A stretch of 53,809 bases of DNA from Alphaproteobacteria bacterium (GCA_030634465.1 DAOWAS010000002.1:1-53809), one strand, 5' to 3'; positions 13,282-30,674 are shown, counted from the stretch's first letter. A program made the numbers and translations. The notes: generated by a model from the sequence alone, not told the origin.

Positions 13282-13299
13282 GTTCGGTAAGAGGTTATT

Positions 13300-16200
13300 A
13301 TGACACTTAGTAATAAAAAATATTTGAGATTATCAACAGGTTTGGGCCTTGTGATGGCACTAGCTGTTGTTACGGCAAATTATACCCAAGCTGCTGATAC
13401 CAAGCCAGAAGATGGTGAAGTTGTTCGTGGTGAAGCCACTATCGATTATAATGGCCTTAATACCACCATTAATCAAAACAGTCTTAAAGCCATTATTAAT
13501 TGGGACAGTTTTTCTGTTGGTGAGGCAGGCAGTGTTGTCTTCAACCAAACTGGTGCTGATGCCGTAACCCTTAACCGAGTTACTGGCGATGGTGTTTCTA
13601 ATATTTTGGGTTCAATTACCGCCCCTGGTCATGTGTTTTTAATTAACCGCAACGGTATTATTTTTGGTGAAGGCTCAACTATTAACGTTGGTGGTTTGGT
13701 TGCTTCAACATTCGACATTTCTGACAATAATTTTTGGTCAGGAAATTATTTGTTTGATAAGGCTGGGGTTGCCAGTGCTTCGGTTGAAAACTTTGGTAGC
13801 ATAACCATTAAAGAAGGTGGCTTGGCCGCATTTGTGGCGCCATATGTGGCAAACTCAGGCGTTATTAATGCCCGTCTTGGCTCAGTGTCATTGGGTGCTA
13901 GCGAAACAGGCTTTGCTTTAGATTTTTACGGTGACGGCTTAATTAAATTTGTGGTTCAAGAAGAAACCCAAGCGCGTCTTGGCCTTGGCGAAGACAGCTT
14001 AGTGGGTGTTGACGTGTCAGGCAGCATTTTGGCTGATGGTGGCATAGTTGCCATTACTGCTGATGTAGCGCGTGAGGTTGTATCTGACATTTTGACCATT
14101 GGCGGCGAAATTCGCGCCAATAGCATTGAGGAACGTGAAGGTAAAATTATCTTGTCAGGCCCTGACAATGGGCGCATTCGCATGAGCGAAGATGCCACGC
14201 TTGATGCAAGCGGTACTCACGGCGGTAGCATTGAGGTTGACGGCGACGTGGTGCTATTGGATGGCGTGTTAGATGCTAGCGGCGACGCGGCTGAATATAA
14301 TGACGCGCTTTCTTATCTATACGGTATTGGTGCGCAACAATCTATTATTGATACGGTTTTAGCACGTGCCAATGGCGGTAATATTAGCGTTAACTCCAAC
14401 TGGTTCAGCCTTGGTGGCGTGCTTGATGTTAGCGGTGCCAACGGTGGTAACATTGACATTAACGTAGGTGGTTTTTCAAACACTGGCGTTAGTTTGGCAA
14501 TTGGCCAGCAAGGCGGCGGTGGTAATATTAGCTTTGATGTTGATACCACAGTATTAGAATTTAACATGGCTTACACCGATGCCTCAGGTTTGGTTGATGG
14601 TGGCTCTATCAGCATGCTTGCTGGGCATCAAATAACATCATCTGGCACATATGTGGCAGATGGCTTGTTGGGTAACGGCGGTAATATTGATGTTTCAGCC
14701 AGCGTAACCAAATCGCTATCAGCACGCTACGGTGCGCGCGGTGGTATTGACGGTGGTCGCATTCGCTTTGGTGGCGAGTTCCAAGGCGGCAAAAACTTAG
14801 CAGAAGGCACAGACGAACTAGCCAATGCTGATGTTACAATTGTCAGTTCTGGTTCGCTTTTTGATGTAACTGGTGGCGGCACTGATGGTATTGGTGGCGG
14901 TGAAGTTATTATCTGGTCGGATGACAAAACCATTTTCCAAGGCTTGATAACAGGCGATGGTGCCTTTGTTGAGGTGTCGTCAGCAGGCGATTTAGAATTT
15001 GTGGGTGATGTTGAAATTGGCGATGGTGAGCTGTTATTAGACCCTAAAAACCTTATTATAACAGAACTATTTGGCACTCCATCGCTCTCTCTTATCCTTG
15101 GTTATCAATATTCTGACGTGCAGCAAGAGGCAGGCACATGGATTGAAAGCTTTGATAATTTTGGGGTGAGGGTAGCACTTGATGGCGACCATTTAGCTGT
15201 TGGTGCCATGATGGACAAGGGGGCTGATAACGCCACATCTAGTGCCGGTGCTGTTTATTTATTCACCTTCATAGCTGGCGATATGTCACAACCTGTTTTG
15301 TCAGCCATTATTGGTGCTGATTATACTGGCGGTAATAATATTGATAATACCTCCATTGAAGCTGGGGATACCTTTGGTTACGGCCTTGCACTAGAGGGCA
15401 ATAAATTGGCTGTTGGTGCAGCCAATGACGATGGCTTTGGTAATGGCGCCATATTCTCAGGTGCTGTATATTTATACACTTTCACAGATAATTTTAATTC
15501 CATTACTGAGGTTGCTGTAATCGGATCTGGTTATACTGTAGGTGAAAATGTAGATGTTGGTCCCCTTGACCTGGGGGATGCTTTTGGTACCAACATAGGG
15601 TTAAGCGGCAACCTTTTAGCCATTGGTGCATCAGGTGATGATGGTAACGCTAATGGATTAACGGATTCAGGTGCGGTTTATCTTTTTAGTTTTACTGGTG
15701 ACTTTACCTCCATAACTCAACAAGCAATAATTGGCTCAGGTTACGCTGGAACTAATGATCTCGACCATACTGGCCTTGAGGCAAGCGACAGGTTTGGCTC
15801 AGCAGTGGCATTGGACGGCACTCTTTTGGCAGCTGGCTCACCTAGTGATGATGGTAGTGGTAATGGTGTATCTGCTGCAGGTGCGGTTTATCTTTATAGT
15901 TTCACTGGCAACTTTACCTCTATAACCCAACAAGCAATTATTGGTGCTGATTATGCAGGCACTAATGATGTTGATAATACTGCACTTGAAATAAATGATT
16001 TTTTTGGTTCATCAATTGCTCTTGACGGTACACATTTAGCAATAAGTGCCACTGGTGATGATGGTAGCGGCAATGGTGTGTCTGGTTCAGGCGCTGTATA
16101 TCTTTATAGTTTTGCTGGCGATTTTACCTCTATAACTCAACAAGCAATAATTGGTGCTGATTATACAAGTGGTAACAATGTTGATAACCATCATTTAGAT

Positions 16201-19200
16201 GGTGATGCCTTTGGCAGGTCATTAGCTTTGGATGGCGGCCGTTTGGTTGTTGGCACTTTTAGTGATGATGGTGCAGATAATTCATCAACAGATTCTGGCG
16301 CAGTTTATCTTTATAGCTACACAGGTGATTTCACCAACATCACCCATGAAGATACTATTGGTTATGGCTATGCGACAGATATTTCTTTGGATGTTGATGA
16401 TTATTTTGGCAGAAGCTTGGCTTTGAGAGGCAGCCTGTTGGCTGTGGGTGCAAGTGGTGATGATGGCATTGGAAATGCCACAACTTATGCGGGAGCGGTT
16501 TATTTATTCACTTTTATCGGCAGTGATCTTACAAACCCAATTTTGTCTGGTATTATTGGGCAAGGTTATACAGGTGGTAATAATGTGGATAACACTGCGC
16601 TTGCTAGTGGTGATGTTTTTGGTGCTGCAGTTGCACTTGATGGAAACCATTTAGCTGTTGGTGCTACTGGTGATGATGGTAGTGGCAATGGTGTGCCTAC
16701 TTCAGGTGCTGTGTATTTGTATAGCTTTACTGATAACTTTAAAGCCATAACCCTAGAGGCAATTATAGGTGCTGATTACGCTGGCACAAATGATTTAGAT
16801 AACACTTCGCTCCAGCCTAGTGACCAGTTTGGGGTATCAGTTGCACTTGATGGCACCCATTTGGCCGTTGGTGCGTTTAGTGATGATGGTAGTGCAGATG
16901 ACGTGTTGACAGGTGGCGCAGTTTATTTATATAGCTTTACAGGTGATTTTACCTCAATAACCCAACAAGCTATCATTGGTTCTGACTATTCTGGTGGCAA
17001 CAATTTTGATGTTGCATCCATTGAAAGCAGTGATTATTTTGGTTCGTCGGTGGCATTAGATGGCACACTTTTGGCCGTGGGGGCGTGGAGAGATAGCGGT
17101 ATATACTCTAGTGCTTATGGTGCGGTCTATCTATTTAGTTTTACTGGTGATTTCACGGGCATCACCCAAGAAGCCATTATAGGGCAGGGCTATTCGGGTG
17201 GTAATAACGTTAATAATAATTGGTTAGGCGATCAAGACCAGTTTGGCTATTCAGTGGCGTTAGATGGCAACCTTTTGGCCGTAGGTGCTCCTTCAGATGA
17301 TGGTTACACTGGCGGGTGGAATAATGGTAAGGTTTATTTATACAGTTTTACAGGAAACTTCACATCTATAACACTTGAATCCCACGTTGGTTGGAATTTC
17401 ACAGGTACAAATGATGTTCATAATAGTAGCCTAGAATATAGTGACAAATTTGGCAGTGCAATTGCATTAGATGGCACCAACTTAGTTATTTCTGCCAAAG
17501 ATGATGATGGTGGCGATAACAGTGTTGAAAATTCTGGCGCAGTTTATCTTTATAGTTTTACTGGTAATTTCACTGATATTACATGGCAAGAAACCCTTGG
17601 CCATGGGCAAGAGATAAACTTTGACCTTGGTGTAGGTGATAGGTTTGGCAGTTCAGTAGCCTTGGATGGTAAGCATTTGGCTGTTGGTGTGTCTAGCGAT
17701 GATGGTGTTGGTGATGGAGTGCCCTCAGTAGGTGCAGTTTATTTATACACTTTTCTGGGTGATGATTTAAAGAACCCTATATTGTCAGCCATTATTGGTG
17801 ATGGTTACAGCGGTGGTAATAATATAGACAATACGTCACTTGGGTTTGCCGATATATTTGGTGCATCAGTTGCCCTCGAGGGTGATCTTTTAGCAGTTGG
17901 TGCAGTTGGAGATGACGGTAGCGCTGATGGTGTTACTGATGCAGGTGCTGTTTATCTATATAGTTTTACAGGAGATTTTAGCTATATAACCGAGCGTGCC
18001 ATAATAGGGTCTGGATACACAAATAGTGGAGATGTGGACAACACAGCACTCGGTGCGAGTGATTATTTTGGACGCTCAGTTGCACTTGATGGCTCACTTT
18101 TAGCAGTTGGCGCTGATGGTGATGATGGCGCTGCGGATGGAGTGTCAGATGCAGGTGCTTTGTATATTTATAGCTTTAGTGGGAATTTTGCATCATTAAA
18201 CCAAGAAATGGTAATTGGCTCTGGTTATTCTGGAGCCAATGCGGTTGATAACACCTCACTTGAAGCTGGTGACCAGTTTGGTTATTCAGTGGCTCTTGAT
18301 AGCCCACTGATAGCTGTAGGGGCCATCAGCGATGATGGTAGTTTTGATGATACACCTAATGCTGGTGCAGTTTATCTTTATAGCTATATTAATGACCTAA
18401 CCACCATTACCCAACGGGCGATTATTGGGGTCGATTATTCGGGTGGTAACAATATTGATAATACAGCGATACAATCCGCGGATAGGTTTGGCTATTCGGT
18501 GGCACTAGATGGCACGCATTTGGGCGTTGGTGCACCATTAGATGATGGATTTAATAATAATGTGTCTAATTCAGGATCGGTCTATCTTTATAGTTTCGCA
18601 GGTAGTTTCAACGCACTAAGTTTAGAGGCAACCATTGGTGCTGATTATACTGGCGGTAATAATGTTGACGAGACATTTGTTGAAGCTAATGATGAGTTCG
18701 GTAGATCTATATCTTTAGACGGAAATAATTTAGCTGTTGGTGCAATGGGTGATGACGGCAGTGATAATAGTCTTTTGACTATGGGCGCTGTTTATCTTTA
18801 TGAAAATGTGTTTGCACCTGTTACGGGAGCAACTGGTTGGAACTTTGCTGACGATACTGGTGCCACAAGTATAGTTGACGTTAATCAAATAACAGATATT
18901 CTTAATGCTGGCACCAATGTTACTCTGCAAGCATCAAACGACATTACACTTAATACGGACCTGATTGTAGCTAACCTTTCTGGCTATGGAGGTACACTAA
19001 CCCTGCAATCTGGTCGCAGTATTTTAATAAATGGTAATGTCACTACTGATCATGGCAGTTTGACATTTGTGGCAAATGATATTGCGGCAAATGGTGTTGT
19101 AAATGCCGACCGCGATGCAGGTGCCGCAGCAATTACAATGGCAAGTGGAACGTCTATTGATACTGGGACTGGTGCTTTTAAAGCTACTCTCTCTACAGGG

Positions 19201-21558
19201 GCGGGTAATACCAATTTAACATCAGGCGACATCACCCTAACCGATGTAACCTCTGAAACTATACTTGTTGAAAATTTGGGGGCATCTAACGGCGATGTAA
19301 TATTAAACGGTGTGTTATATGCAACAGAAGCAGCTGGCTTTACCACCCCACTTGTTGTGGCATCACTTGGTGGTAACTTTATAAACAACGTAGGTGCTGG
19401 TGCTTTGGTTGTTGAAGACACTGGCGAAGATTACAATCGTTGGCTTGTTTACAGTCAAAACCCAACAGACAACACCAATGGTGGTTTGGATGGTATTCAG
19501 TGGTATAACACAACGTATAATAGCGCTGCGCCAACCACGATTAATGATTTCACCGATAGTAATCGCTTTGTTTATACTCAAACAGCTACATTGTTAATAA
19601 CCGCAGACGATGTGAGCCGTGATTATGGTTTGGCTAACCCCACCTTTACCACCACAATAACTGGTTTTGTAAATGGTGAAACAGATGCGATAATGTCTGG
19701 CTCAGCGGCAACACCAACCACAACAGCAACTGCCACTACTAATGTGGGTACAGCTGTTATCACACCCGGGTATGGTAGCCTTAGTGACCGTTATAATTAC
19801 CAAGCGTCGCTGGTTAATGGCACACTAACAATCGACCCTGCCACTTTAACAGTAACAGCAGATGATGCCTCTCGTACTTATGGCGAGGCTAACCCAACAT
19901 TAACCTCAAGCATAACTGGTTTTATGAATGGGGAAACATCTTCTGTATTATCAGGTGCGGCTGGAACCCCATCAACAACAGCTACAGCCACAACTAATGC
20001 AGGCACAACGGCTATAACTATTGATACAGGTACACTTTCTGCAACTAACTATGTGTTCGTTGCAGCAGATGGCACCCTTACAATAAATAAAGCCACGCTA
20101 ACTGTTACGGTTGGTGATGAAACACGAGTTTATGGCGATGCCACCGAGATTTTTAATGTGAATGTTACAGGTTTTGTTAATGGCGAAGATATATCTGTAG
20201 CTTCTAACTTAACACTTTCATCCAATGCAACAGCAACGTCAGATGTAGGCACATATGCTTTAAGTGGTTCAGATGCTACCGCCGACAATTATACATTTAC
20301 CTATGTTGATGGTGCCTTAACCATAACCAAAGCACGGTTAACAATTGTTGGTGCAGACGCGACCTCCACTTACGGAACAGTTCGCACTGATTATGATTAT
20401 AGTGTTACTGGGTTCTTAAATGGTGATGATGCTTCTGTAATAACTGGCGCGGTAATATTTGATTTAGATCCAAATTATAGCGCAACGTCGGCAGCAGGAT
20501 CACAGTTTGAAATAGATACAAATGCTTTAGGTCTAGCATCAACCAATTACACCTTCACTGGGGTTGATTTGATATTAACCGTTGAGAAAGCACCATTGAC
20601 CGTAACCTTAGGCGACGATAGTAAAACATACGATGGTTTGGCCTACAGCGGTGGTAACGGTATAACTTACACAGGCTTAGCTAATGGCGAAACCGAGGCA
20701 GTGCTTGGTGATGTGCTATCATTTGGTGGCACAGCGCAAGGTTCTGTTAATGCGGGTACATATACAATTACCCTTGAGGGCTTAACCTCAACCAACTACA
20801 CCATAACCTTTGTTGATGGTGCCTTAACCACCGACAAGGCGGCTTTAAGCGTTACAGCTAATGATGATAGCAAAATTGCTGATGGCGTTGCCTATAGCGG
20901 TGGTAACGGTGTTGTTTACGCAGGCTTTGTAAACAGCGAAACTGATACTGTATTGGGTGGAGATGTAACATATAGCGGCACCTCACAAGGTGCAGTTGAC
21001 GCAGACACATATGTAATTACACCTGAGGGTCAAACCTCTGATAATTACACCATAACCTATGTTGATGGCACCTTAACCATTGAAGCTGGTGCTGGCGGCG
21101 ATGGCGGTGACGGTGGTTCAGACGACCCTGCTGATCCTGTTAATGACCCTGTGCCACCTGCGCCTCCTGTAAGCGACCCACCTGTTGATACTTCAACAGA
21201 TAGTTTGCCAGATAACTCACCTGCACCAACAGCTCAGGTTGTTAGCTCTGGCAGTGTTTTGGTTGTGGCTAACGCTGTTACAGAAGAAATAACTATCACC
21301 TCAAATGTGATAAGTGTTGAGCTTCCAGACGGTATATTTGACCATGAGGACGACACAGCTACATATACAGTAACAGCGACATTGCCAAATGGTGAGCCGT
21401 TACCTGAATGGTTGTCATATGATGCCGAGACCAATACATTAACTGGTGTTGTTCCTGAGGGCTTCTCAGGTGAGATTGACGTATTGCTAACCGCTGAAGA
21501 TGCACAGCAAAATACAGCACAGACAGTTGTTAAAATTAATGTAACCTCAGAAGGTTGA
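13300..21558 (+). CDS. Giant TpsA exoprotein (2752 aa): TPS/haemagglutination-activity domain, beta-helix, 18 FG-GAP-type blades, beta-helix, 6 MBG-type repeats, Pro-rich linker, cadherin/Ig-like C-terminal domain
   Basis: Sec signal peptide. TPS motifs are INQNSLKAIINWDSFSVGEAGSVVFNQ...LNRVTGDGVSNILGSI...FLINRNGIIFG. The blade consensus FG.SVALDG..LAVGA..DDG.G.G....GAVYLYSF occurs 18 times. The MBG-like unit (TLTVTADDASRTYGEANP...NY.F...DGTLTI) occurs 6 times. The tail is TATLPNGEPLPEWLSYDAETNTLTGVVPEGFSGEIDV. Confidence 0.9.
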   Translation: MTLSNKKYLRLSTGLGLVMALAVVTANYTQAADTKPEDGEVVRGEATIDYNGLNTTINQNSLKAIINWDSFSVGEAGSVVFNQTGADAVTLNRVTGDGVSNILGSITAPGHVFLINRNGIIFGEGSTINVGGLVASTFDISDNNFWSGNYLFDKAGVASASVENFGSITIKEGGLAAFVAPYVANSGVINARLGSVSLGASETGFALDFYGDGLIKFVVQEETQARLGLGEDSLVGVDVSGSILADGGIVAITADVAREVVSDILTIGGEIRANSIEEREGKIILSGPDNGRIRMSEDATLDASGTHGGSIEVDGDVVLLDGVLDASGDAAEYNDALSYLYGIGAQQSIIDTVLARANGGNISVNSNWFSLGGVLDVSGANGGNIDINVGGFSNTGVSLAIGQQGGGGNISFDVDTTVLEFNMAYTDASGLVDGGSISMLAGHQITSSGTYVADGLLGNGGNIDVSASVTKSLSARYGARGGIDGGRIRFGGEFQGGKNLAEGTDELANADVTIVSSGSLFDVTGGGTDGIGGGEVIIWSDDKTIFQGLITGDGAFVEVSSAGDLEFVGDVEIGDGELLLDPKNLIITELFGTPSLSLILGYQYSDVQQEAGTWIESFDNFGVRVALDGDHLAVGAMMDKGADNATSSAGAVYLFTFIAGDMSQPVLSAIIGADYTGGNNIDNTSIEAGDTFGYGLALEGNKLAVGAANDDGFGNGAIFSGAVYLYTFTDNFNSITEVAVIGSGYTVGENVDVGPLDLGDAFGTNIGLSGNLLAIGASGDDGNANGLTDSGAVYLFSFTGDFTSITQQAIIGSGYAGTNDLDHTGLEASDRFGSAVALDGTLLAAGSPSDDGSGNGVSAAGAVYLYSFTGNFTSITQQAIIGADYAGTNDVDNTALEINDFFGSSIALDGTHLAISATGDDGSGNGVSGSGAVYLYSFAGDFTSITQQAIIGADYTSGNNVDNHHLDGDAFGRSLALDGGRLVVGTFSDDGADNSSTDSGAVYLYSYTGDFTNITHEDTIGYGYATDISLDVDDYFGRSLALRGSLLAVGASGDDGIGNATTYAGAVYLFTFIGSDLTNPILSGIIGQGYTGGNNVDNTALASGDVFGAAVALDGNHLAVGATGDDGSGNGVPTSGAVYLYSFTDNFKAITLEAIIGADYAGTNDLDNTSLQPSDQFGVSVALDGTHLAVGAFSDDGSADDVLTGGAVYLYSFTGDFTSITQQAIIGSDYSGGNNFDVASIESSDYFGSSVALDGTLLAVGAWRDSGIYSSAYGAVYLFSFTGDFTGITQEAIIGQGYSGGNNVNNNWLGDQDQFGYSVALDGNLLAVGAPSDDGYTGGWNNGKVYLYSFTGNFTSITLESHVGWNFTGTNDVHNSSLEYSDKFGSAIALDGTNLVISAKDDDGGDNSVENSGAVYLYSFTGNFTDITWQETLGHGQEINFDLGVGDRFGSSVALDGKHLAVGVSSDDGVGDGVPSVGAVYLYTFLGDDLKNPILSAIIGDGYSGGNNIDNTSLGFADIFGASVALEGDLLAVGAVGDDGSADGVTDAGAVYLYSFTGDFSYITERAIIGSGYTNSGDVDNTALGASDYFGRSVALDGSLLAVGADGDDGAADGVSDAGALYIYSFSGNFASLNQEMVIGSGYSGANAVDNTSLEAGDQFGYSVALDSPLIAVGAISDDGSFDDTPNAGAVYLYSYINDLTTITQRAIIGVDYSGGNNIDNTAIQSADRFGYSVALDGTHLGVGAPLDDGFNNNVSNSGSVYLYSFAGSFNALSLEATIGADYTGGNNVDETFVEANDEFGRSISLDGNNLAVGAMGDDGSDNSLLTMGAVYLYENVFAPVTGATGWNFADDTGATSIVDVNQITDILNAGTNVTLQASNDITLNTDLIVANLSGYGGTLTLQSGRSILINGNVTTDHGSLTFVANDIAANGVVNADRDAGAAAITMASGTSIDTGTGAFKATLSTGAGNTNLTSGDITLTDVTSETILVENLGASNGDVILNGVLYATEAAGFTTPLVVASLGGNFINNVGAGALVVEDTGEDYNRWLVYSQNPTDNTNGGLDGIQWYNTTYNSAAPTTINDFTDSNRFVYTQTATLLITADDVSRDYGLANPTFTTTITGFVNGETDAIMSGSAATPTTTATATTNVGTAVITPGYGSLSDRYNYQASLVNGTLTIDPATLTVTADDASRTYGEANPTLTSSITGFMNGETSSVLSGAAGTPSTTATATTNAGTTAITIDTGTLSATNYVFVAADGTLTINKATLTVTVGDETRVYGDATEIFNVNVTGFVNGEDISVASNLTLSSNATATSDVGTYALSGSDATADNYTFTYVDGALTITKARLTIVGADATSTYGTVRTDYDYSVTGFLNGDDASVITGAVIFDLDPNYSATSAAGSQFEIDTNALGLASTNYTFTGVDLILTVEKAPLTVTLGDDSKTYDGLAYSGGNGITYTGLANGETEAVLGDVLSFGGTAQGSVNAGTYTITLEGLTSTNYTITFVDGALTTDKAALSVTANDDSKIADGVAYSGGNGVVYAGFVNSETDTVLGGDVTYSGTSQGAVDADTYVITPEGQTSDNYTITYVDGTLTIEAGAGGDGGDGGSDDPADPVNDPVPPAPPVSDPPVDTSTDSLPDNSPAPTAQVVSSGSVLVVANAVTEEITITSNVISVELPDGIFDHEDDTATYTVTATLPNGEPLPEWLSYDAETNTLTGVVPEGFSGEIDVLLTAEDAQQNTAQTVVKINVTSEG
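15100..18804 (+). repeat. In-frame array of 18 FG-GAP-type units (~64-70 codons each) with a 6-unit higher-order period
   Basis: I counted 18 (A/K/S)(V/L)Y(L/I)(Y/F) cores. Variant short-linker blades start at nt 15100, 16360 and 17599. Neighbouring units share long near-identical DNA: 15913-15954 vs 16123-16164 is 40/42 identical. Confidence 0.85.
19585..21084 (+). repeat. Six tandem MBG-type (YG-containing) domain repeats, ~83 codons each
   Basis: Each unit opens A(T/A/P/R)L(T/S)(V/I)T..D.S(R/K).YG (YDG or ADG in the last two units) and closes NY.(F/I).(Y/F)VDG.LT(I/T). Confidence 0.7.
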
Positions 21559-21583
21559 TATAAAAAAACTAAAGGAAATAAAA

Positions 21584-22099
21584 ATGAGACATGCCGTTTT
21601 ATTGGGTCTAGCTTTGAGTTTTTACCCAACATTCAGTGCTAATGCACAAGAAAGTACAAGCTACACTTATGGTGACTGGAAAGTTACATGTGTTGAACGT
21701 GAAAATGCGTTGCCATGTGAAATGACACAAAGCTTAATCGACAGTACATCTGGTCAAACTGTAACACATTTTTCACTAGCTTATTCACCCGTTGATGAAG
21801 CTTATGCCATACAAATATCAGTACCCCTAGGCGTTAAGCTAGAGGGCGGCATGGTTATAAAAGCAGGGGAAACAGTTGTTGAGGGCATACGCTTCTCTCG
21901 TTGTTTGCCAGGCGGTTGCTTAATTGAAGCAAAACTGGAAGACCCATTGTTAGGAGCCATGTCAGCTGGTGGTGAGGCCGCAATTGCAGTGGTTGATGCA
22001 TCAGGGCAGGCAGTTTCGTTGCCATACTCACTAAACGGCTTCGCTGATGCTAAAGCACAACTGGTGAAAGAGACCACCACCCGCATGCCTCAGAACTAA
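21584..22099 (+). CDS. Invasion-associated locus B (IalB)-family periplasmic protein
   Basis: 171 aa. Signal peptide ...FSANAQE. YGDWKVTCVE...LPCEMTQSL...FSLAY...V.EGIRFSRCLPGGCLIEA is the IalB pattern. It starts 25 nt after the tpsA stop, with an AAGGAA SD. Confidence 0.75.
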   Translation: MRHAVLLGLALSFYPTFSANAQESTSYTYGDWKVTCVERENALPCEMTQSLIDSTSGQTVTHFSLAYSPVDEAYAIQISVPLGVKLEGGMVIKAGETVVEGIRFSRCLPGGCLIEAKLEDPLLGAMSAGGEAAIAVVDASGQAVSLPYSLNGFADAKAQLVKETTTRMPQN

Positions 22100-22133
22100 T
22101 CTAATTATTTAGAACAACATTCAAGAAAGAAAA

Positions 22134-22257
22134 TGGTGATCCCGAGTGGATTTACCATCGCTTTGCTCTGTTGCCTTGGTGCTGTTTCGAAATGCAATGC
22201 ATTTCTGCACCATTTTTGTTCTTGCGGTCGAACCTGTTTATTCCACAGATTCAAATC
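22134..22257. repeat. Structured repeat, copy 2
   Basis: TGGTGATCCCGAGTGGATTT matches the 3' end of the tRNA gene (plus-strand TGGTGATCCCGACAGGATTT) at 18/20 positions. Hairpin GGTGC(22178-22182)/GCACC(22207-22211) encloses GAAATGCAATGCATTTC, then ATTTTTGTT and TGCGGTCGAACCTGT. Confidence 0.8.
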
Positions 22258-22302
22258 AGCGTTCCATCCATTCACTTTATTCTCCAAAGGGAATGCAGCG
22301 AG

Positions 22303-22425
22303 TGGTGATCCCGAGTGGATTTACTGTTTCGCGCTATGCGCTCACATTACCTTGGTGCTATTTCGAAATGCTGTGCATTTCTGCACCTGCGGTCGAACTT
22401 CTTTATTCCACAGCTTCAAATTCAC
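22303..22425. repeat. Structured repeat, copy 3 (tandem to copy 2, 169 nt offset)
   Basis: Same 20-nt tRNA-end look-alike. Hairpin GGTGC(22354-22358)/GCACC(22383-22387) encloses GAAATGCTGTGCATTTC. The T-run is deleted, and TGCGGTCGAACTTCT is conserved. Confidence 0.8.
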
Positions 22426-22434
22426 TTCTGGTTA

Positions 22435-22461
22435 CCAAACAAAAACCCGCCAATGGCGGGC
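22435..22461 (-). terminator. Rho-independent terminator of tRNA-Arg
   Basis: The minus strand reads GCCCGCC-ATT-GGCGGG followed by TTTTTGTTTGG, starting 8 nt after the tRNA 3' end. Confidence 0.75.
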
Positions 22462-22468
22462 TTGTGTT

Positions 22469-22545
22469 TGGTGATCCCGACAGGATTTGAACCTGTGGCC
22501 TCAAGATTAGGAATCTTGCGCTCTATCCAACTGAGCTACGGGACC
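22469..22545 (-). tRNA. tRNA-Arg (anticodon CCT), CCA encoded
   Basis: 77 nt: GGTCCCG TA GCTC AGTTGGATA GAGC G CAAGA TTCCTAA TCTTG AGGCC ACAGG TTCAAAT CCTGT CGGGATC A CCA. All four stems pair (one G-T in the acceptor stem). The anticodon loop TT-CCT-AA gives CCT. Confidence 0.93.
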
Positions 22546-22682
22546 ATGTTGTTGTGGTTATTAACATACGAATTTACGCTTCTCAATGTTGAACTGAAAA
22601 AGGGGCTTTTCCTGTTTTTGTTGAGCTTTTGTTTAGGTTGTATATTATCTAAGGTTGTAATTAGAATTTTTTAGGGGGTGTT

Positions 22683-22955
22683 ATGAAAAGCCGAAAAGAA
22701 AAACTTGAGGGTGTTATTGCAAAGGGGAAGTGGCACTTTGTATTTTGGCGGGGTATGGTTTTTTGGGGTCTTAGCACAGCAATTTCAGTTAAAGTTGTCA
22801 TTTATTTTATAAGCGGCACCCCGTTTCTTGAAGATATATGGGTTTGGATATTCACTTTCACCCTAATGGGTGGCCCGCTTTTTGGGTTGTTTATGTGGCC
22901 AATAATCAATCGTCAGTATGAAAAGCTGAAGCACAAAGAAAATATGCCTGAGTAG
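22683..22955 (+). CDS. Small membrane protein (2 predicted TM helices), hypothetical
   Basis: 90 aa with an AGGGGG SD 5 nt upstream. Hydrophobic stretches are VFWRGMVFWGLSTAISVKVVIYFI and IWVWIFTFTLMGGPLFGLFMWPII. Confidence 0.55.
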   Translation: MKSRKEKLEGVIAKGKWHFVFWRGMVFWGLSTAISVKVVIYFISGTPFLEDIWVWIFTFTLMGGPLFGLFMWPIINRQYEKLKHKENMPE

Positions 22956-22968
22956 TTAGAAGGTCAGC

Positions 22969-23775
22969 GTGATAAGTAAGTTTTTCATTATAGTTTTGCT
23001 TTTTTGTTTGTTCTTTACGCCATTTGTTGCTGTGGCGCAGGGGCTATCAAACCAACCTGCCCACATGACAAAAACTGTTAGTGAAATTATGCCTGATGGC
23101 ACGCTGGTTTTAGAAGGCGGCAGTGAAATTATATTGTCGGGCATTCGCTGGTGGACACTCTTTGGTGGTGATGGGAACACATATGCCAGCCCAAAAGATT
23201 TGTTAGAAAAATATATCAGTGACATGCCTGTAAATATTTATCTAGAGCCAATGCCAAAAGACAGATATGGCCGTGTTTCAGCACTGGTTGTAACAAGTGA
23301 TGGCGTGTTGATACAACAAGACCTGTTGCAAACAGGTCAAGCAATGTTTTGGCCTAACAGTGCCCAAAATGAAATGCTGCGTGAAGCAGAAACCCAAGCA
23401 AGGAATGATGGTGTAGGTCGTTGGGGTTGGCCATCAGGCGTGGTTAAATGCCACAATTGGGACGGATTTTGGACTGAGGGAATGGCAATTGTTAAGGGCA
23501 GGGTGAAAGAGGTAAGGGAATTTGATAGCGTTACCTATATTAATTTTGGCGAGGTGTGGTGGCAGGACTTTACCATAAAAATAAACAATCGCTGGGCTAG
23601 AGAAAACAGTTTTGATGCGCACAGTATCGAGGGGCAAGAGGTTGAGGTGCGTGGCTGGTTGTTCTGGCAGGGTGGCCCGCAAATATTGTTGGAGCATAAG
23701 GCACAAATAACCCCCCAAAGTGAGGGGGGTCAAAGTGATTGGGCTGCATGTCCATCCTTAGTGGAGGCTTCTTAA
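22969..23775 (+). CDS. Secreted thermonuclease (SNase)-like protein with extra C-terminal domain
   Basis: GTG start and a signal peptide ...FVAVAQG. RYGRVSALVVTSDGVLIQQDLLQTGQAMFWP...EAETQARNDGVGRW resembles the staphylococcal-nuclease fold. Confidence 0.65.
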   Translation: MISKFFIIVLLFCLFFTPFVAVAQGLSNQPAHMTKTVSEIMPDGTLVLEGGSEIILSGIRWWTLFGGDGNTYASPKDLLEKYISDMPVNIYLEPMPKDRYGRVSALVVTSDGVLIQQDLLQTGQAMFWPNSAQNEMLREAETQARNDGVGRWGWPSGVVKCHNWDGFWTEGMAIVKGRVKEVREFDSVTYINFGEVWWQDFTIKINNRWARENSFDAHSIEGQEVEVRGWLFWQGGPQILLEHKAQITPQSEGGQSDWAACPSLVEAS

Positions 23776-23793
23776 GCGAAGTGTGCCTGATTG

Positions 23794-24681
23794 TTAAATT
23801 AGCATGGTATAATCTGCTAAATTGTCAGTGCCCAATTGATTTATAATTGCTTTTTTAAGCTTTGCCATGGCTTGAGCTTCTAATTGGCGTACGCGTTCTT
23901 TGCTTACGCCAAGTTTTTCGCCAATTGCGGCCAAAGTTTCGCTACTTTCTGCAAGACGGCGTTCCTGAATAATTTTTAATTCACGTTCATCTAGACAAGT
24001 AAGTGCCTGTGCTATTAATTGTGAGCGCACGTTGCTGTCGTGGTTTTTTTGTACGTGTGCCTCAGGGGTTGGGTCGTTATCCACAAGGTTATCTTGCCAT
24101 TCAGTACCAGCCTCATCGGTAACCGATACGTTTAAAGAGTAGTCACCTGTGAACATGCGGCTTTCCATAGTAGCAACGTCTTTTTCTCTAACGCCCAGTT
24201 CTTTGGCAATAATTTTAATGCTTTCAGGCTTTAAAGTTTCGTCACTTACAGAAACCAGTTTTGCTCTGGTGCGGCGCAAACTAAAAAACAGCTTTTTATG
24301 GGCGGCAGTTGTGCCAGTGCGAACAATGGACCAATTGCGTAAAACATAATCCTGAATTGTGGCGCGTACCCACCAGTTGGCATAAGTTGAAAAGCGCAAG
24401 TTTCTTGCAGGTTCAAACTTTTCTGCGGCTATTAACAGGCCCACAGTTCCTTCCTGAATAAGGTCGGTGCGTGGCAAGCCATAGTTTTTAAACTTGTTTG
24501 CAATGGATATTGCTAATCTCATGTATGAGCTTGTTAATTCAGCCAAGGCGGCTTCATCTTTATTTTTCTGCCAGCGAATTGCGAGATCTAGCTCATGCTC
24601 TTTTTCCAGCATTGGGGCTTTAATTGCTTTATCAAAAATTTGACGACTTGTTTCTGTCAATTGTTCTTGTGCTGATCTCAT
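23794..24681 (-). CDS. rpoH: RNA polymerase sigma-32 heat-shock factor
   Basis: Regions 2-4 are present: LIQEGTVGLLIAAEKFEP, FSTYANWWVRATIQDYVL. The RpoH box is RTGTTAAHKKLFFSLRR. 295 aa. Confidence 0.9.
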   Translation of the reverse strand: MRSAQEQLTETSRQIFDKAIKAPMLEKEHELDLAIRWQKNKDEAALAELTSSYMRLAISIANKFKNYGLPRTDLIQEGTVGLLIAAEKFEPARNLRFSTYANWWVRATIQDYVLRNWSIVRTGTTAAHKKLFFSLRRTRAKLVSVSDETLKPESIKIIAKELGVREKDVATMESRMFTGDYSLNVSVTDEAGTEWQDNLVDNDPTPEAHVQKNHDSNVRSQLIAQALTCLDERELKIIQERRLAESSETLAAIGEKLGVSKERVRQLEAQAMAKLKKAIINQLGTDNLADYTMLI

Positions 24682-24813
24682 TTTGAAATTCCCTACAAAT
24701 GTTAGGCAAAATAATTTTTGCTCAACTTGTAGGGGTAGTGTTGAATTTCAATGTTAAACTTTTGTGACACTTTTATGTTTGTTTTCGTAAGATTGCATTT
24801 GCATGTTTGTGCC

Positions 24814-24843
24814 ATAAAAAAAGCCCGACGGTTAAGTCGGGCT
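24814..24843 (-). terminator. Rho-independent terminator downstream of carD
   Basis: 8-bp stem AGCCCGAC(24822-24829)/GTCGGGCT(24836-24843) with a 6-nt loop. On the minus strand it is followed by TTTTTTTA. Confidence 0.8.
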
Positions 24844-24868
24844 TTCTATAAAACTTATTTGTATCTGC

Positions 24869-25372
24869 TTATGCGGCGTATAGAACTTTTTCCAAACGCT
24901 CTATAGCTTCGTTTTCCTCAATGTCTTCAACGGCGGCAAGCTCACGAGCCAAACGACCAATTGCAGATTCGTATATCTGTCTTTCGGAATAAGATTGTTC
25001 TGGCTGATCACCCTTTCTATGCAGGTCACGAACAACTTCTGCGATAGATATCAGATCACCTGAATTTATTTTTGCTTCATATTCCTGAGCGCGTCTGCTC
25101 CACATTGTTCTTTTAATACGCGCTTTGCCCTTTAGAGTTGTAAAGGCATTTTCCACTGTGTCTGGGTTTGCCAGTTTTCTCATGCCTGTAATTTCGGCTT
25201 TGTTAATGGGAACGCGCAGGGTCATTTTCTCTTTTTCAAACTTTATCACATATAGTTCCAGTGAAATGCCTGAGAAGATTTGGGTTTCAATGGCGACAAC
25301 ACGCCCAACACCATGTTTTGGATAAACAACATGAGTGCCAATTTTAAACTGTTTTTTTGTGCTTTTTGTCAT
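24869..25372 (-). CDS. carD: CarD/CdnL-family RNA-polymerase-binding transcription factor
   Basis: FKIGTHVVYPKHGVGRVVAIE...LELYVIKFEKEKMTLRVPINKA...GMRKL, plus the C-terminal ...YESAIGRLARELA. 167 aa. Confidence 0.88.
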   Translation of the reverse strand: MTKSTKKQFKIGTHVVYPKHGVGRVVAIETQIFSGISLELYVIKFEKEKMTLRVPINKAEITGMRKLANPDTVENAFTTLKGKARIKRTMWSRRAQEYEAKINSGDLISIAEVVRDLHRKGDQPEQSYSERQIYESAIGRLARELAAVEDIEENEAIERLEKVLYAA

Positions 25373-25816
25373 TGTTCTGAAATTTCCTTCATTGATGTTT
25401 TGCTTGTATATTTTATTTTTTAAATACTAAACAGCGGATAGGGTTACCTACGCCACGCAATAATTTTTCAGCAGGCACTATTTTTATACTATGGAAGTGA
25501 TAGCGCCTTGTCTTACTCGATTTTTGTTGGAATACATAGGCAGGCTTGTTGTAATTACTGTAATTACGCCAGATCATTATACCAGTCGCTTGTCAATATT
25601 AAGCGCACTTGGCTGTCTGTTGGCCTGCTCACCCGTTTCTAGTTTTTTGCCCTTAAATCTTAAATGTAACTCAACTTGCCCCAACGGAAACGACCCAAAA
25701 GAGTACAGTTCCATCGATAATATGAAGGTAATATAGCACAAAAAAGACTAAAAAGGTAGCCCTTGCGGCATTTTATGTATTTTTTCTAAATAATAAGATG
25801 CAGAACAGTTTTAAGG

Positions 25817-26155
25817 CTAGTCGCCTTTTCCTGGTGCTTCAGAGAAAAATTTGGCAAATTTTCCTTCAACATCTTTAAATTCGTCCGCATCAGCAGGGCT
25901 TTCGCCTTTGGCTGTAATGTTGGGCCATTTTTCTGAATAGTCGGCGTTTAGCTCAACCCATTTTTCCAAATTGCTTTCAGTGTCAGGCAAAATAGCTTCC
26001 GCAGGGCACTCAGGCTCACACACACCACAATCAATACATTCATTGGGGTTTATAACTAACATATTTTCGCCTTCGTAGAAGCAATCTACAGGGCAAACCT
26101 CAATACAATCCATATATTTGCACTTAATGCACGCGTCTATTACTACGTAAGTCAA
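25817..26155 (-). CDS. fdxA: 7Fe ferredoxin (3Fe-4S plus 4Fe-4S)
   Basis: [51 protein letters not shown] is the FdxA cysteine pattern. Confidence 0.92.
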
Positions 26156-26256
26156 GCTGGCCTCCTTTATCTGCCGTCTAGGGTATATGCGTTACCTTCT
26201 AGCTATAACCACCTTAAAGCACATAAGCTTAATTGGTTTCAAGTCCAATAGTGATT

Positions 26257-26715
26257 TTATTCTTCAATACCTAGCTTGGCAAGCACCCGCTTTCTGGCAT
26301 CGCCCCGATCTCGGTCAGACACATAGATAAGCCCGGCAATGCGGCGCAATAAATTTGTTTCATAATCGTGGGCTATACCATCGGTATAAACAACCTCCCA
26401 CAACATTTCTATTAGCTCAACTCGCTCATCTTCTGAGTAGTTATCTTTAATGGCACGGGTGAAGCGCAGCAGATGGTTGCTTTCATCTTGGTGTTTAGCC
26501 GCTTCAATTATCAGGTCATTGGCTTCATCTTTTTCCAAGCCAAAGTTATTTATAATAATATCTCTAATGGTTGCAACTTCGGCGGCATCAACATTGCCAT
26601 CCATAGCTGCGGCCTCAACCATAAGCACTGCGGCTGCCATGTTTTTGTCTAAAGGTGTTTTGTTTTTTACATTTTCAACATCGTTAAAAAAGTTCTTTAT
26701 TTTTTTTAGCATCAA
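26257..26715 (-). CDS. TerB-family (tellurite-resistance-like) protein
   Basis: 152 aa. AAAVLMVEAAAMDGNVDAAEVATIRDII...FGL...EA..LI..A and ...ERVELIEMLWEVVYTDGIAHDYETNLLRRIAGLI follow the TerB two-repeat pattern. Confidence 0.6.
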   Translation of the reverse strand: MMLKKIKNFFNDVENVKNKTPLDKNMAAAVLMVEAAAMDGNVDAAEVATIRDIIINNFGLEKDEANDLIIEAAKHQDESNHLLRFTRAIKDNYSEDERVELIEMLWEVVYTDGIAHDYETNLLRRIAGLIYVSDRDRGDARKRVLAKLGIEE

Positions 26716-26730
26716 ACTTTGTCTTTCTTG

Positions 26731-26793
26731 CCCATGCGGGCGCTTGGCTTACCCATGCGGGTGCTTGGCGCACCCATACGGGTGCTTGGGTTA
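26731..26793. repeat. 3 x 21-bp tandem repeat; each unit can form a short hairpin
   Basis: The units are CCCATGCGGGCGCTTGGCTTA / CCCATGCGGGTGCTTGGCGCA / CCCATACGGGTGCTTGGGTTA. The stems are GCCC/GGGC, ACCC/GGGT and GCACCC/GGGTGC. The last unit contains the DUF3501 stop codon. Confidence 0.85.
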
Positions 26794-27399
26794 TGTTTCT
26801 TTAAAATCTTGCCCAAGTGCATTTTTTGTATCAATTGGCATTATAGCCATATGACCATAATTGGGATGATTTATGGCAACTACAATACTTGCGTCACTAT
26901 TTTTATATTTTTTAATTTGTTCGTTAGTAAATGGAAAGTGTAAAAAATGTATGGATGATGTTTTGCCATCAGGGGCGGTGCGTTCAACATCGACCTCCCA
27001 AGTGGCTTGAATTTTCTCAATTCCATCACTGTTTTCAATAGAAATGCTTACGTATTCTTCAATACGCCCTAGTTTAGCCAGCTCTCTGGCGCGCACATCT
27101 GGGTCGGTATATTCCAACATCATGGTGGCGGTTAGCTCATTACCGTTTGGCACTAACGGCGCATATGCTGTTAGTTCATCATTAAGCTGTTCTTCGCCAC
27201 CTTTTTCAGACAGCACCATTTCCTGAACCTGATATTGCATAGTTTCAAAGTTTTCAAAATACAGCATTACCGCAGGGCCAATCGCTTGGCGTCTGTTTTT
27301 CTTCATGGCGATCATTTTTTGGCGAATGTCTTTACGCTTTGCCGCATATTCATCCATGTCCATAATATCAGCCGCTGTCAGTTGCGTTTTATTACTCAT
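26791..27399 (-). CDS. DUF3501-family protein
   Basis: 202 aa. LTAADIMDMDEYAAKRKDIRQKMIAMKKNRR...GP...YFENFETMQYQVQEM...ELTAYAPLVPNG.ELTATMM matches my recollection of DUF3501, and it sits in that family's usual rubrerythrin/Fe-S context. Confidence 0.6.
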   Translation of the reverse strand: MSNKTQLTAADIMDMDEYAAKRKDIRQKMIAMKKNRRQAIGPAVMLYFENFETMQYQVQEMVLSEKGGEEQLNDELTAYAPLVPNGNELTATMMLEYTDPDVRARELAKLGRIEEYVSISIENSDGIEKIQATWEVDVERTAPDGKTSSIHFLHFPFTNEQIKKYKNSDASIVVAINHPNYGHMAIMPIDTKNALGQDFKET

Positions 27400-27426
27400 T
27401 TTTATTCCTTATTATTTTTATTTTAT

Positions 27427-28764
27427 CTACAGGCCGTAAGATATTGCCAGCAGTTCAATAGGGTGTTGGGCATCTTTGGTTTGGCTGGTATCTGTGTCCA
27501 GTTTCTCCACCCCTTGTAAAATATGCTCTCTGGCTAACGGACATTCAGATACAATATATGGCGTCATGTCTTTTGCCATTTTGCGTGCCACAGGCTTGCC
27601 CACTTTAATGGCGGTTTCGAAATTATCTTTCATCACCCCCCACGAGCCACCATGACCAGAGCAACGCTCTATTACAGCCACCTCGGTTTCGGGAATAAGC
27701 TTGAGCATTTCAGCACCCTTTTGCCCCATGTTCTGGGCGCGGGCGTGGCATGACATGTGTATGGTCACACCGCCATCAAGCGGGCTTAGGCCATCAGCAA
27801 TGCCATCTTTCAGCGCTATGTCCATGACATATTCGTCAATATCAAATGTGGCTTTTGACAGGGTAATAACATCTTCGTTTTCAGGCACAATAAGCGGCCA
27901 TTCAAACTTCAGCATCAGGCTGCATGACGAGACTAGTGAAATCACATCATAACCTTTTTCAATCCACGGCTTTAGCTCAGCCGCTACTTTTTCAGCATTT
28001 TCTGCCACACGGGCTAAGTCGCCGTGTTCCATTTGCGGCATGCCGCAACATGCGGGGTAAACTATTTCGGTTTCAACACCGTTTTGTGCCAGCACCGCGC
28101 GCGATGCCACACCAATGTCAGCATTGTTAAATTCTGAAAAACAAGTGGCGTAAATAACAGCCTTGCGACCATATGCAGGGGCGTTTTTGTTAACTTCTAT
28201 TTTTGTTGCCGCCAGTTGTTCGCGCAGGGTTTTCTTTTCAAATTTTGGCAAATAAGCATCTTTATGAATGCCAAGTGTTTTTTCCATTATGGGGCGGGTC
28301 AGTTTATTATCTGTTTTACTAGCCCAGTTTGTTACACCTGAAAATCCACAACCAATTTTACCATTTCTGTCGGTTTCGGTTAGCTGTTTTTCAACAAATT
28401 TTGTTTTGCCTTCGGCGTTTTGCACTGCTCTTGCCCGCAGCATTAAATGTGGAAAGTCTAAATCAAATTCATGGGGTGGCACATATGGGCATTTAACCAT
28501 AAAGCACATGTCGCAAAGGGTGCAGTCATCAATAACAGGTTTAAAATCTTTGCTGTCTACGCTGTCTAGCTCCATGGTTTCGCTATCGTCAATAAGGTCA
28601 AACAGCTTGGGAAAGCTATCGCACAGGTTAAAGCAACGTCTGCAACCATGACAAATATCAAACACGCGTCTAAGTTCAGCATCCAACAGTTCTGGATTTA
28701 AAAAGTCAGCATCCCGCCAAGGGATATTGTGACGTATTGGAGCACCTAAACCACCTTCACTCAT
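27427..28764 (-). CDS. Heterodisulfide-reductase-related (HdrD/GlpC-like) Fe-S protein with CCG domains
   Basis: Ferredoxin-type clusters CHGCRRCFNLC and CTLCDMCFMVKCP. Two Cys-rich CCG-like regions (ATCF...PACCGMP and SCHARAQ...ERCSGHGG...ECPLA). Start placed at ATG 28764 (AAGGAA 7 nt upstream). The longer ORF from 28821 would run through a 10-bp hairpin. Confidence 0.75.
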   Translation of the reverse strand: MSEGGLGAPIRHNIPWRDADFLNPELLDAELRRVFDICHGCRRCFNLCDSFPKLFDLIDDSETMELDSVDSKDFKPVIDDCTLCDMCFMVKCPYVPPHEFDLDFPHLMLRARAVQNAEGKTKFVEKQLTETDRNGKIGCGFSGVTNWASKTDNKLTRPIMEKTLGIHKDAYLPKFEKKTLREQLAATKIEVNKNAPAYGRKAVIYATCFSEFNNADIGVASRAVLAQNGVETEIVYPACCGMPQMEHGDLARVAENAEKVAAELKPWIEKGYDVISLVSSCSLMLKFEWPLIVPENEDVITLSKATFDIDEYVMDIALKDGIADGLSPLDGGVTIHMSCHARAQNMGQKGAEMLKLIPETEVAVIERCSGHGGSWGVMKDNFETAIKVGKPVARKMAKDMTPYIVSECPLAREHILQGVEKLDTDTSQTKDAQHPIELLAISYGL

Positions 28765-28791
28765 GACTGTTTCCTTTTTAAGTTTCAGTAA

Positions 28792-28814
28792 GAGGGGAGG
28801 ATAATCCTCCCCTC
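28792..28814 (-). other. Intercistronic perfect hairpin between rubrerythrin and the Fe-S gene
   Basis: GAGGGGAGGA-TAA-TCCTCCCCTC is a 10-bp perfect inverted repeat. It begins 17 nt after the rubrerythrin stop, and no long U-tract follows. Confidence 0.7.
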
Positions 28815-28830
28815 GCACCATTTAAGTTTA

Positions 28831-29253
28831 TTATCCGTCTAGGTTGTCTAAAGCTTTTTGGAAACGACCAGCGTGTGAACGCTCGGCTTTACCTAAAGTT
28901 TCAAACCAATCGGCAATTTCGTCAAAACCCTCTTCACGAGCAGTTTTAGCCATGCCTGGATACATGTCGGTATATTCGTGTGTTTCGCCTTCAATTGAAG
29001 CTTTAAGGTTAGCTTCTGTGCCGCCAATAGGCAGGCCAGTTGCAGGGTCGCCAGTTTCTTCTAGATATTCTAGATGGCCGTGGGCATGACCTGTTTCGCC
29101 TTCTGCAGTTGAACGGAAAACAGTTGCTACATCGTTGTAACCTTCAATGTCTGCTTTTTGGGCAAAATAAAGATAACGACGGTTAGCTTGTGATTCGCCA
29201 GCAAAAGCGGCTTTTAAGTTTTCTTCAGTTTGTGAACCTTTTAGATCGCTCAT
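28831..29253 (-). CDS. Rubrerythrin-family diiron protein
   Basis: [26 protein letters not shown]...[12 protein letters not shown]...[12 protein letters not shown]...ERSHAGRF gives the ExxH diiron ligands. Start placed at ATG 29253 (AAGGAG 10 nt upstream); an alternative is 29262. Confidence 0.85.
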
Positions 29254-29322
29254 AGTATGCATACTCCTTGTTTGCTTGTTAGATTCGGTATTGAAAATAT
29301 TCCCTTTGCATATATTTGTCCA

Positions 29323-29359: not shown

Positions 29360-29360
29360 T

Positions 29361-30260: not shown

Positions 30261-30276
30261 GCGGCGATACTTAGCT

Positions 30277-30666: not shown

Positions 30667-30674
30667 CAGGGTGG

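Follow-up and report, generated by a model that had tools for sequence, protein, structure and literature searches.

Genomic islands at the ssrA gene of Dehalococcoides are bounded by 20-bp repeats of that gene's 3' end, with insertion midway along the T-loop, conserved sequences flanking the repeats, and islands standing in tandem arrays (PMC3146451). Fifteen of those islands are without integration genes and were interpreted as cis-mobilizable elements, or CIMEs (PMC3146451). The concept of CIMEs and their accretion is reviewed in PMC5704250, citing Pavlovic 2004 and Bellanger 2011. The Islander database description gives, for island ends, the rule of a regenerated target and a displaced fragment (PMC4383910). 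A somewhat different arrangement is seen after tyrV in E. coli K-12, where copies of 95% identity are spaced 178 and 178 bp and the last overlaps the tyrV 3' end. The corresponding tyrT distal repeats reportedly go back to Egan & Landy 1978, Rossi 1981 and Bosl & Kersten 1991; the context of rttR is given in bioRxiv 10.1101/2024.07.17.603846. Here we describe a locus on a metagenome scaffold of an uncultured alphaproteobacterium (GCA_030634465.1 DAOWAS010000002.1:1-53809; the whole 53.8-kb stretch of 53,809 nt is called the window), in which three repeat units of ~120 nt (c1, c2 and c3; Table 1) accompany an intact tRNA-Arg(CCT) gene. Our favoured reading, held with somewhat better than even confidence, is that the units are attR-type borders of genomic islands inserted at a tRNA-Arg(CCT) hotspot and that ~100 nt of each is an island-side arm. 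They are most likely a lineage-restricted addition to a known sort, that of island borders at a tRNA hotspot, here with an arm whose hairpin resembles a terminator.

Every unit ends in a copy of the last 20 nt of tRNA-Arg(CCT) (AAATCCTGTCGGGATCACCA), running from midway along the T-loop to CCA. The copies match the tRNA gene at 18/20 positions in c2 and c3 and 16/20 in c1; a fourth unit, c4, found in a sister strain, matches at 20/20. All units are in the orientation of the tRNA, and the tRNA-end copies are spaced 169 and 166 bp in the row leading up to it. In c4, the 20-mer and the 8 nt beyond a core of ~70 nt read TGGTGATCCCGACAGGATTT and GAACCTAT, and together they match the contiguous tRNA gene at 27 of 28 positions, so the junction falls between positions 56 and 57 of the T-loop. 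A sequence-only reading of this DNA had proposed a three-copy repeat family. That family is real: a profile search of the window finds these three units only, with nhmmer E-values of 1e-31 to 1e-40, far beyond chance. The units are slightly longer than proposed. The same reading could not assign the repeat to a family it knew, and Rfam has no match to it either; what it missed was the link to the adjacent tRNA-Arg gene and to island integration. The span it described left out the gene itself, which lies 166 nt from c3.

Other likenesses to the tRNA were not counted or are not significant. Matches to the tRNA end or T-arm, AGTATGTGAACCTATAGGC at 3951-3970 (p=0.015) and TGGTGAATGCCTATAGAAGGTTTGA at 7782-7807 (p=0.055, both uncorrected), lie close to the boundary of synteny on the left and immediately within c1, respectively, and may be either chance matches or scars of older, decayed insertions. 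Candidate decayed tRNA-end scars at 3.9, 5.9 and 7.78 kb, with p=0.015-0.055 before multiple-test correction, were accordingly left out of the count. A split T-arm based on sense-strand likeness alone (ACAGGTTC) is not significant (p~0.15); the antisense match described below is.

The body of the unit is built around an interrupted hairpin of 12-13 bp, common to c1, c2 and c3, that consists of an inner helix of 7 bp, a 6x1 internal loop and an outer helix of 5 bp, which is extended to 6 bp in c1 and c2. The nested hairpin, its two compensatory double changes and its variable 3-nt loop, all of which the sequence-only reading had described, are present in the sequence, as are the 5'-proximal hairpins of c1 and c2 (CGGTAA/TTACCG versus CGA-TGG/CCATCG). 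Directly after the helix, c1 and c2 carry a T-tract, ATTTTTGTT(T/C)T, and exactly those 11 nt are absent from c3. TGCGGTCGAAC is unchanged across all copies, and all four (c1-c4) keep blocks such as GTTCGACCGCA without any change. The likeness of c2 to c3 extends to 22258 and 22423, and the spacers flanking them (22259-22302 versus 22424-22468) are not homologous (p=0.44). The end of c1 at 7725 is set by the profile and model matches, its last ~20 nt being its own palindrome; c1 is identical, surroundings included, in four samples. A 17-nt inverted repeat of 88% complementarity (CAAGAAAGAAAATGGTG and CACCATTTTTGTTCTTG; 22122-22138 and 22208-22224) is specific to c2 and pairs an A-rich stretch just ahead of the unit to the T-tract that follows the unit's hairpin. 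The plus-strand open reading frame (ORF) at 22133-22474 was rejected as coding, given that the frame differs from copy to copy, c1 contains stop codons and the indels do not come in multiples of three.

The loci of relatives and sister strains, collected via neighbouring proteins, place the units in a variable region. The window sigma-32 is 54-58% identical to those of the best named relatives (Henriciella, Ponticaulis and Hyphomonas), and its M1 peptidase is 61-63% identical to that of Rhodothalassium. One relative, L017, has a sigma-32 (RpoH) of 81% identity and an identical tRNA-Arg(CCT) gene, and is collinear over 12 kb with window 22468-34601. By tblastx, that collinearity stops exactly at the tRNA 3' end (window 22468 = L017 14013), and past the tRNA there are, in L017, small ORFs, an S8 peptidase and an AAA/nSTAND ATPase, with no unit among them. 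Sister-strain contigs were chosen by an identical 90-aa neighbour of the tRNA. L060, from an NCBI metagenome-assembled genome, has the same tRNA flank as the window. In L061, from another sample, only one unit (c4) is present and adjoins an unrelated gene. In L059, from the window's own sample, there is neither a unit nor a terminator, and a different gene again directly adjoins the tRNA. The sister-strain contigs therefore have 0, 1 or 2 copies adjoining the same tRNA, with different neighbouring genes each, and four different tRNA 3' flanks are on record (window, L061, L059 and L017). Since the flanks differ completely between the genome, its sister strains and a related lineage, the 3' side of the tRNA is hypervariable at the strain level, and the units are part of the variable DNA. 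Three independent metagenome contigs break inside or at tRNA-Arg(CCT).

The variability may not be confined to the 3' side. A 99%-identical strain (L019 4161-5140, compared with window 22545-22969) seemingly has no 90-aa ORF (window 22683-22955) and has only 94 nt from an SNase-like gene to the tRNA, so the tRNA 5' side is variable too. In L017, the S8 subtilase beside the AAA/nSTAND3 ATPase, with small ORFs, at the same hotspot (14130-17607) looks like a defence-type pair.

The unit in L061 is informative. Two tRNA-Arg(CCT) alleles occur in the population (L061 534-610 versus window 22469-22545), differing by a compensated T-stem pair (AGAGG/CCTCT versus ACAGG/CCTGT). The terminal 20-mer of c4 matches the tRNA of the window and L017 in full, and L061's own tRNA has the other T-stem allele. 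That c4 ends like the window-type tRNA and unlike its own fits a displaced ancestral 3' end and a new one supplied by an element. The body of c4 is like that of c1, with the GCCGC/GCGGC helix, the same loop and 85% identity, whereas its tail is of the c2/c3 type and it lacks the same 11-nt T-tract as c3, making it a mosaic of a c1-type body and a c3-type tail. All four combinations of helix haplotype and presence of the T-tract occur, a sign that copies have recombined with one another. On the edge nearest the tRNA in c2, c3 and c4, a segment of 14-17 nt matches the T-arm of the tRNA in inverted orientation (p~0.001 each) and carries the matching base of each strain's tRNA allele, in the window and in L061; given one substitution in 14 nt, there is a ~1-in-42 chance of following the L061 allele.

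The tRNA has an intrinsic terminator of its own between it and c3, and this scores as terminator-like on the plus strand too, so that by scan it is bidirectional. Rfam gives it weak matches of leader or terminator type only. In L061 the corresponding place, equally far from the tRNA (L061 ~505-527), holds an orthologous hairpin; the two sequences differ (GCCCC-ATTTA-GGGGC versus CCCGCC-AAT-GGCGGG).

Pairs in the unit hairpin were counted on four distinct copies, including c4 of the sister strain. All 13 of 13 pairs are 100% paired. Within each haplotype, the stems have 0/24 differences against 17% and 24% in the rest of the unit (P=0.011 and 0.0016), and invariance of the stems beside a diverged remainder argues that the palindrome is maintained. 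The stems are kept equally in the two copies without the T-tract (c3 and c4) and the two with it. Two pairs are changed on both sides (CG<->GC and CG<->UA), as two haplotypes of 2 versus 2 sequences, and the covariation score was equalled or beaten in 15/500 column shuffles. With only two helix haplotypes, this covariation is weak evidence. The hairpin energies (-12.5 to -14.4 kcal/mol) do not differ between the strands, and mirrored changes would also be expected from a symmetric protein site or from palindrome correction by template switching. The earlier argument that covariation favours nucleic-acid structure over a protein-binding site does not survive these points. The evidence for a novel structured RNA is weak.

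The plus strand does resemble a terminator in two of the units, as the sequence-only reading had reasonably suggested. The c1 and c2 hairpins fold at -13 to -14 kcal/mol (c2 at -12.9 kcal/mol), with a GC-rich base and the T-tract immediately after. The placement of c2 just downstream of ialB is also correct: the unit begins 34 nt past the ialB stop, and its hairpin and T-tract lie 79-123 nt past it on the plus strand.

An intact tRNA, 20-nt copies of its end in the same orientation, extra conserved sequence, tandem copies and an integrase-less cargo add up to a tandem-island architecture. The 20-mers would be displaced fragments, i.e., attR-type direct repeats, from site-specific integration into the T-loop region of the tRNA by elements that regenerate the tRNA 3' end. 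The ~100 nt beside each 20-mer would be a conserved island-side arm of related elements. Successive integrations and then decay may have produced the tandem array of decayed CIME-like elements, which we would order as the tRNA, a mini-unit of ~166 bp (c3), a mini-unit of ~169 bp (c2), and a 14.5-kb integrase-less island closed by c1. Recombination among copies would have given rise to the mosaic c4 and to strains that differ in copy number (0/1/2). In the arm, the interrupted hairpin of 12-13 bp is presumably under selection, and in c1 and c2 it most likely acts with the T-tract to stop plus-strand transcription leaving the island. The c2 terminator would keep the ialB operon from reading antisense into the tRNA. 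In c3 and c4 the T-tract is gone, and the tRNA's own terminator, bidirectional by scan, stands ~45 nt further on. We infer the terminator function and, from the architecture, the integration, decay and accretion. With no integrase gene found among the scanned ORFs, the claim is limited to decayed, integrase-less islands.

Several observations weigh against this interpretation. Among the scanned ORFs between 3.9 and 22.5 kb (each at least 80 aa long), Pfam and NCBIfam find no integrase or recombinase, and a 311-aa ORF beside c1, placed as one would expect of an integrase and considered as a hidden one, is a PggH homologue instead (E=5e-136 to PDB 7d62). No empty-site contig or excised circle was found, and mobility is presumed. 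The 20-mers of c1, c2 and c3 are imperfect, and for decayed scars the island-side arm shows an unusual degree of conservation. As to termination, a simple terminator scan calls neither the c1 nor the c2 hairpin because the stem is interrupted by the 6x1 internal loop, and c1 has no obvious plus-strand gene upstream of its terminator. The equal conservation of the stems without a T-tract (0/24) means that termination is not the whole reason for their conservation. A hairpin that is independent of the T-tract, invariant blocks, a T-arm segment that tracks the allele and a conserved U-G pair keep a minus-strand RNA or a trans-mobilised element in play as minority readings.

Further copies were sought widely. 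An exact-pattern scan of species-representative genomes gave 13 matches, to the hairpin only and all in unrelated taxa. A scan of JGI metagenomes gave 8, of which the best two, L049 and L050, consist of the hairpin and a poly-A stretch and do not represent the unit. Two patterns against IMG/VR gave 0 and 25 chance matches, and blastn against plasmids and phages gave no copy. A six-frame translation of the unit (concatenated) compared with a protein database for spurious ORF calls returned nothing. Strain copies aside, nhmmer and a covariance model found no copy outside the tRNA flank in 257 kb of related loci. A dispersed repeat of the repetitive extragenic palindrome or miniature inverted-repeat transposable element (MITE) type, which the sequence-only reading had named, with terminal inverted repeats, as a case that would refute it, was rejected: inspection of the unit ends finds neither terminal inverted repeats nor target-site duplications, no dispersed copies were found, and the three window copies are all in the tRNA flank. 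The Brt family of Bartonella has a conserved core sequence and lies 10-18 nt upstream of an XRE-type gene. This small RNA was considered on account of the ialB name and rejected, since the Brt probe from PMC5387305 is absent at <=3 mismatches and the genome does not belong to Bartonella. Judged by inspection alone, the motifs of K-turns, integron attC sites and IS200/IS605-type ends do not fit. ARAGORN and Rfam find nothing in the units that would make them a two-piece tmRNA or a tRNA pseudogene.

Could the unit be a structured noncoding RNA gene on the minus strand, either tRNA-linked like E. coli rtT RNA or tRNA-like with a CCA end, whose 5' segment might pair with the T-arm of tRNA-Arg or with its precursor? 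Conservation is blockwise with variable linkers, and there are hairpins at up to four positions, some differing in sequence between copies. A 5' helix, UUGAA/UUCGA, keeps its U-G pair in 4/4 copies and has an A-U to G-U change in c1; such pairs can form on the minus strand only, where the consensus fold retains the U-G pair, whose plus-strand counterpart is mismatched. The unit ends exactly in ...ACCA, its stems are conserved even without the T-tract, and the 14-17-nt antisense match to the T-arm (p~0.001 per copy) follows the strain's own allele in L061. On the other side, Rfam 15 at the gathering threshold returns the real tRNA only, and the best value over the units in E-value mode is E=1.2 with the RtT, tRNA-like, tmRNA and alphaproteobacterial small-RNA models included, RtT (RF00391) giving no match at E<=10. 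Near the units the minus strand showed no promoter-like site, and c3 and c4 sit directly behind the strong tRNA terminator. The structured-RNA idea of the sequence-only reading thus gained no independent support. Its tRNA- or minihelix-like 3' end is present, copied from tRNA-Arg(CCT), but inspection reveals no acceptor-type 5' partner for the ...GATCACCA end and its CGGGATC strand. The only predicted closing helix between 5' and 3' ends (in c3) is made up for the most part of G-U pairs, the z-scores of folding, at -2.3 to -3.1, are modest, and there are four copies in two helix haplotypes, all within one island hotspot. We regard such an RNA gene as unlikely. A little less probable still is the broader proposition that the unit is a functional, self-contained entity, be it an att-only, trans-mobilised miniature element or a tRNA-linked RNA antisense to the T-arm of tRNA-Arg(CCU) that co-varies with the allele and modulates the maturation or availability of a rare-codon tRNA.

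A small non-autonomous mobile element, MITE-like or moving as single-stranded DNA that forms hairpins, targeting a tRNA-Arg-like T-loop and mobilised in trans by an enzyme whose gene lies elsewhere in the genome, would explain the sharp boundaries and unrelated flanks in four contexts, the non-homologous c2 and c3 spacers, and a ~70-nt core of c4 placed exactly between T-loop halves that match the tRNA at 27/28. Copy number differs among strains and the subterminal hairpins are conserved, as such an element would have it. It is nevertheless very doubtful, given unit ends without inverted repeats or duplications, no transposase or recombinase nearby, and a single locus, with none in the 257 kb or the public scans. 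Equally doubtful is a locally duplicated plus-strand intrinsic terminator cassette in which the tRNA-like end is just a passenger: the GC-based hairpin followed by ATTTTTGTT in c1 and c2, and c2 lying just past the ialB stop, speak for it, yet the hairpin is intact in c3 and c4 despite the missing T-tract, c1 has no plus-strand gene upstream, the hairpins escape the simple scan, and conservation extends ~45 nt to either side of the hairpin to include the exact tRNA 3' end. The palindrome might also be the DNA site of a dimeric protein, such as an integrase arm site or a site for an excisionase or repressor of the elements that inserted at this attachment site, with the mirrored changes tracking a shift in specificity. 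Here the perfect inner repeat GAAATGC-N3-GCATTTC with a free 3-nt spacer, the mirrored outer-arm changes, the position ~45 nt from the putative crossover and conservation regardless of the T-tract are apt. No candidate protein is encoded nearby, and the asymmetric 6x1 interruption is atypical of a symmetric operator; we give a site of this kind the same low credence.

The cargo between c1 and c2 is a block with no counterpart in relatives L017 and L053 (Table 1). The GC content is lower (0.39) across the part at 6-12 kb. Just outside c1 lies a c-di-GMP turnover pair, a response regulator with an HD domain of HD-GYP type (4049-5572, plus strand) and the 311-aa PggH (6444-7379, minus strand), whose PDB match is the Vibrio cholerae pGpG phosphodiesterase. 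The block at 3912-7600 has no counterpart in the relatives' loci compared and may be a further acquired segment. All contigs with pggH also have c1 and the kinase, and none links the pggH flank to the tRNA; the relatives' loci with M1 peptidase orthologues do not connect to the tRNA.

Table 1. Features of the tRNA-Arg(CCT) locus, in window coordinates; hairpin sequences are those of the plus strand.
Feature	Position	Strand	Details
tRNA-Arg(CCT) gene, intact, anchor of the locus	22469-22545	-	ARAGORN; Rfam tRNA, 72.8 bits
tRNA intrinsic terminator	22443-22463	-	AAGCCCGCCATTGGCGGGTTT + TTGTTTGG; terminator scan
c3, unit nearest the tRNA	22303-22423	-	
c3 pseudo-3' end	22303-22322	-	18/20 to tRNA
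c3 hairpin (no T-tract)	22354-22387		GGTGC-TATTTC-GAAATGC-TGT-GCATTTC-T-GCACC
c3 conserved block	22388-22398		TGCGGTCGAAC
c3 T-arm-like segment	22408-22421		CCACAGCTTCAAAT
c2 unit	22134-22258	-	
c2 pseudo-3' end	22134-22153	-	18/20 to tRNA
c2 hairpin	22178-22211		GGTGC-TGTTTC-GAAATGC-AAT-GCATTTC-T-GCACC
c2 T-tract	22212-22222		
c2 conserved block	22223-22233		TGCGGTCGAAC
c2 T-arm-like segment	22243-22256		CCACAGATTCAAAT
Candidate factor-independent terminator of the ialB/two-partner-secretion operon	22178-22222	+	c2 hairpin GGTGC...GCACC, then ATTTTTGTTCT
c1, distal unit	7603-7725	-	
c1 pseudo-3' end	7603-7622	-	16/20 to tRNA
c1 hairpin (GCCGC/GCGGC haplotype)	7646-7679		GCCGC-TATCTC-GAAATGC-ATT-GCATTTC-T-GCGGC
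c1 T-tract	7680-7690		
c1 conserved block	7691-7701		TGCGGTCGAAC
c1-only palindrome	7707-7725		TTACATTGTCTCAATGTAA
Cargo between c1 and c2, 14.5-kb block	7792-22099	.	Pfam, NCBIfam; no integrase
Hybrid histidine kinase	7792-10437	-	NMT1/THI5-like periplasmic domain
OmpR-type regulator	10678-11406	+	
FhaC/ShlB transporter	11590-13281	+	
TpsA exoprotein	13300-21558	+	2752 aa; 18 FG-GAP + 6 MBG repeats
IalB, directly downstream of TpsA	21584-22099	+	Pfam PF06776, E=9e-26

If the units are island borders, the value of the result is mainly one of annotation. It would make tRNA-Arg(CCT) an integration hotspot in an uncultured alphaproteobacterial lineage and would delimit a 14.5-kb integrase-less island that carries a two-partner-secretion adhesin/toxin system, a two-component regulator and IalB. 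It would also mean that short att-linked modules can accumulate and recombine. There is a caution in it as well, in that compensatory changes in a palindrome, seen in a small number of related copies, do not on their own point to a structured RNA. The retention of the hairpin without the T-tract and the T-arm-like segment that tracks the strain's tRNA allele deserve attention when more copies are at hand.

What c1 and c2 share with Rho-independent terminators is a hairpin of GC-rich base and, immediately after it on the plus strand, ATTTTTGTT; by contrast, the stem has the 6x1 interruption, and two of the four copies have lost the T-tract and kept the hairpin. The arrangement resembles the distal repeats of E. 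coli tyrT/tyrV (rtT RNA/rttR, tpr), where units of ~170 bp follow the tRNA and each ends in the last ~19-20 nt of it. There, however, the whole period is repeated at 95% identity, whereas here ~120 nt are shared and the spacers are unrelated, a strong terminator stands between the tRNA and the first unit, a further copy lies 14.5 kb off, and there is no likeness to RtT in sequence or by Rfam. With unrelated spacers and no RtT match, we regard tyrT as an analogue and not as the same family. The architecture fits that of CIMEs, which keep attL/attR-type sites in tandem at the 3' end of a tRNA with integration and transfer genes lost, and which a neighbouring element mobilises; the known CIMEs are kilobases long and come from Firmicutes and Dehalococcoides, and for the units described here mobilisation would be hypothetical. 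Compared with the Dehalococcoides ssrA islands, the present locus has no integrase-bearing member, two of its "islands" are just ~166-169 bp, the arm is ~100 nt with a selected hairpin, and the repeats are imperfect (16-18/20) except in L061. It shares with them the intact target gene at one end, the conserved sequence by the repeats, the tandem variable region and the islands without integration genes. Those islands are the closest described case, with a correspondence that is almost point for point.

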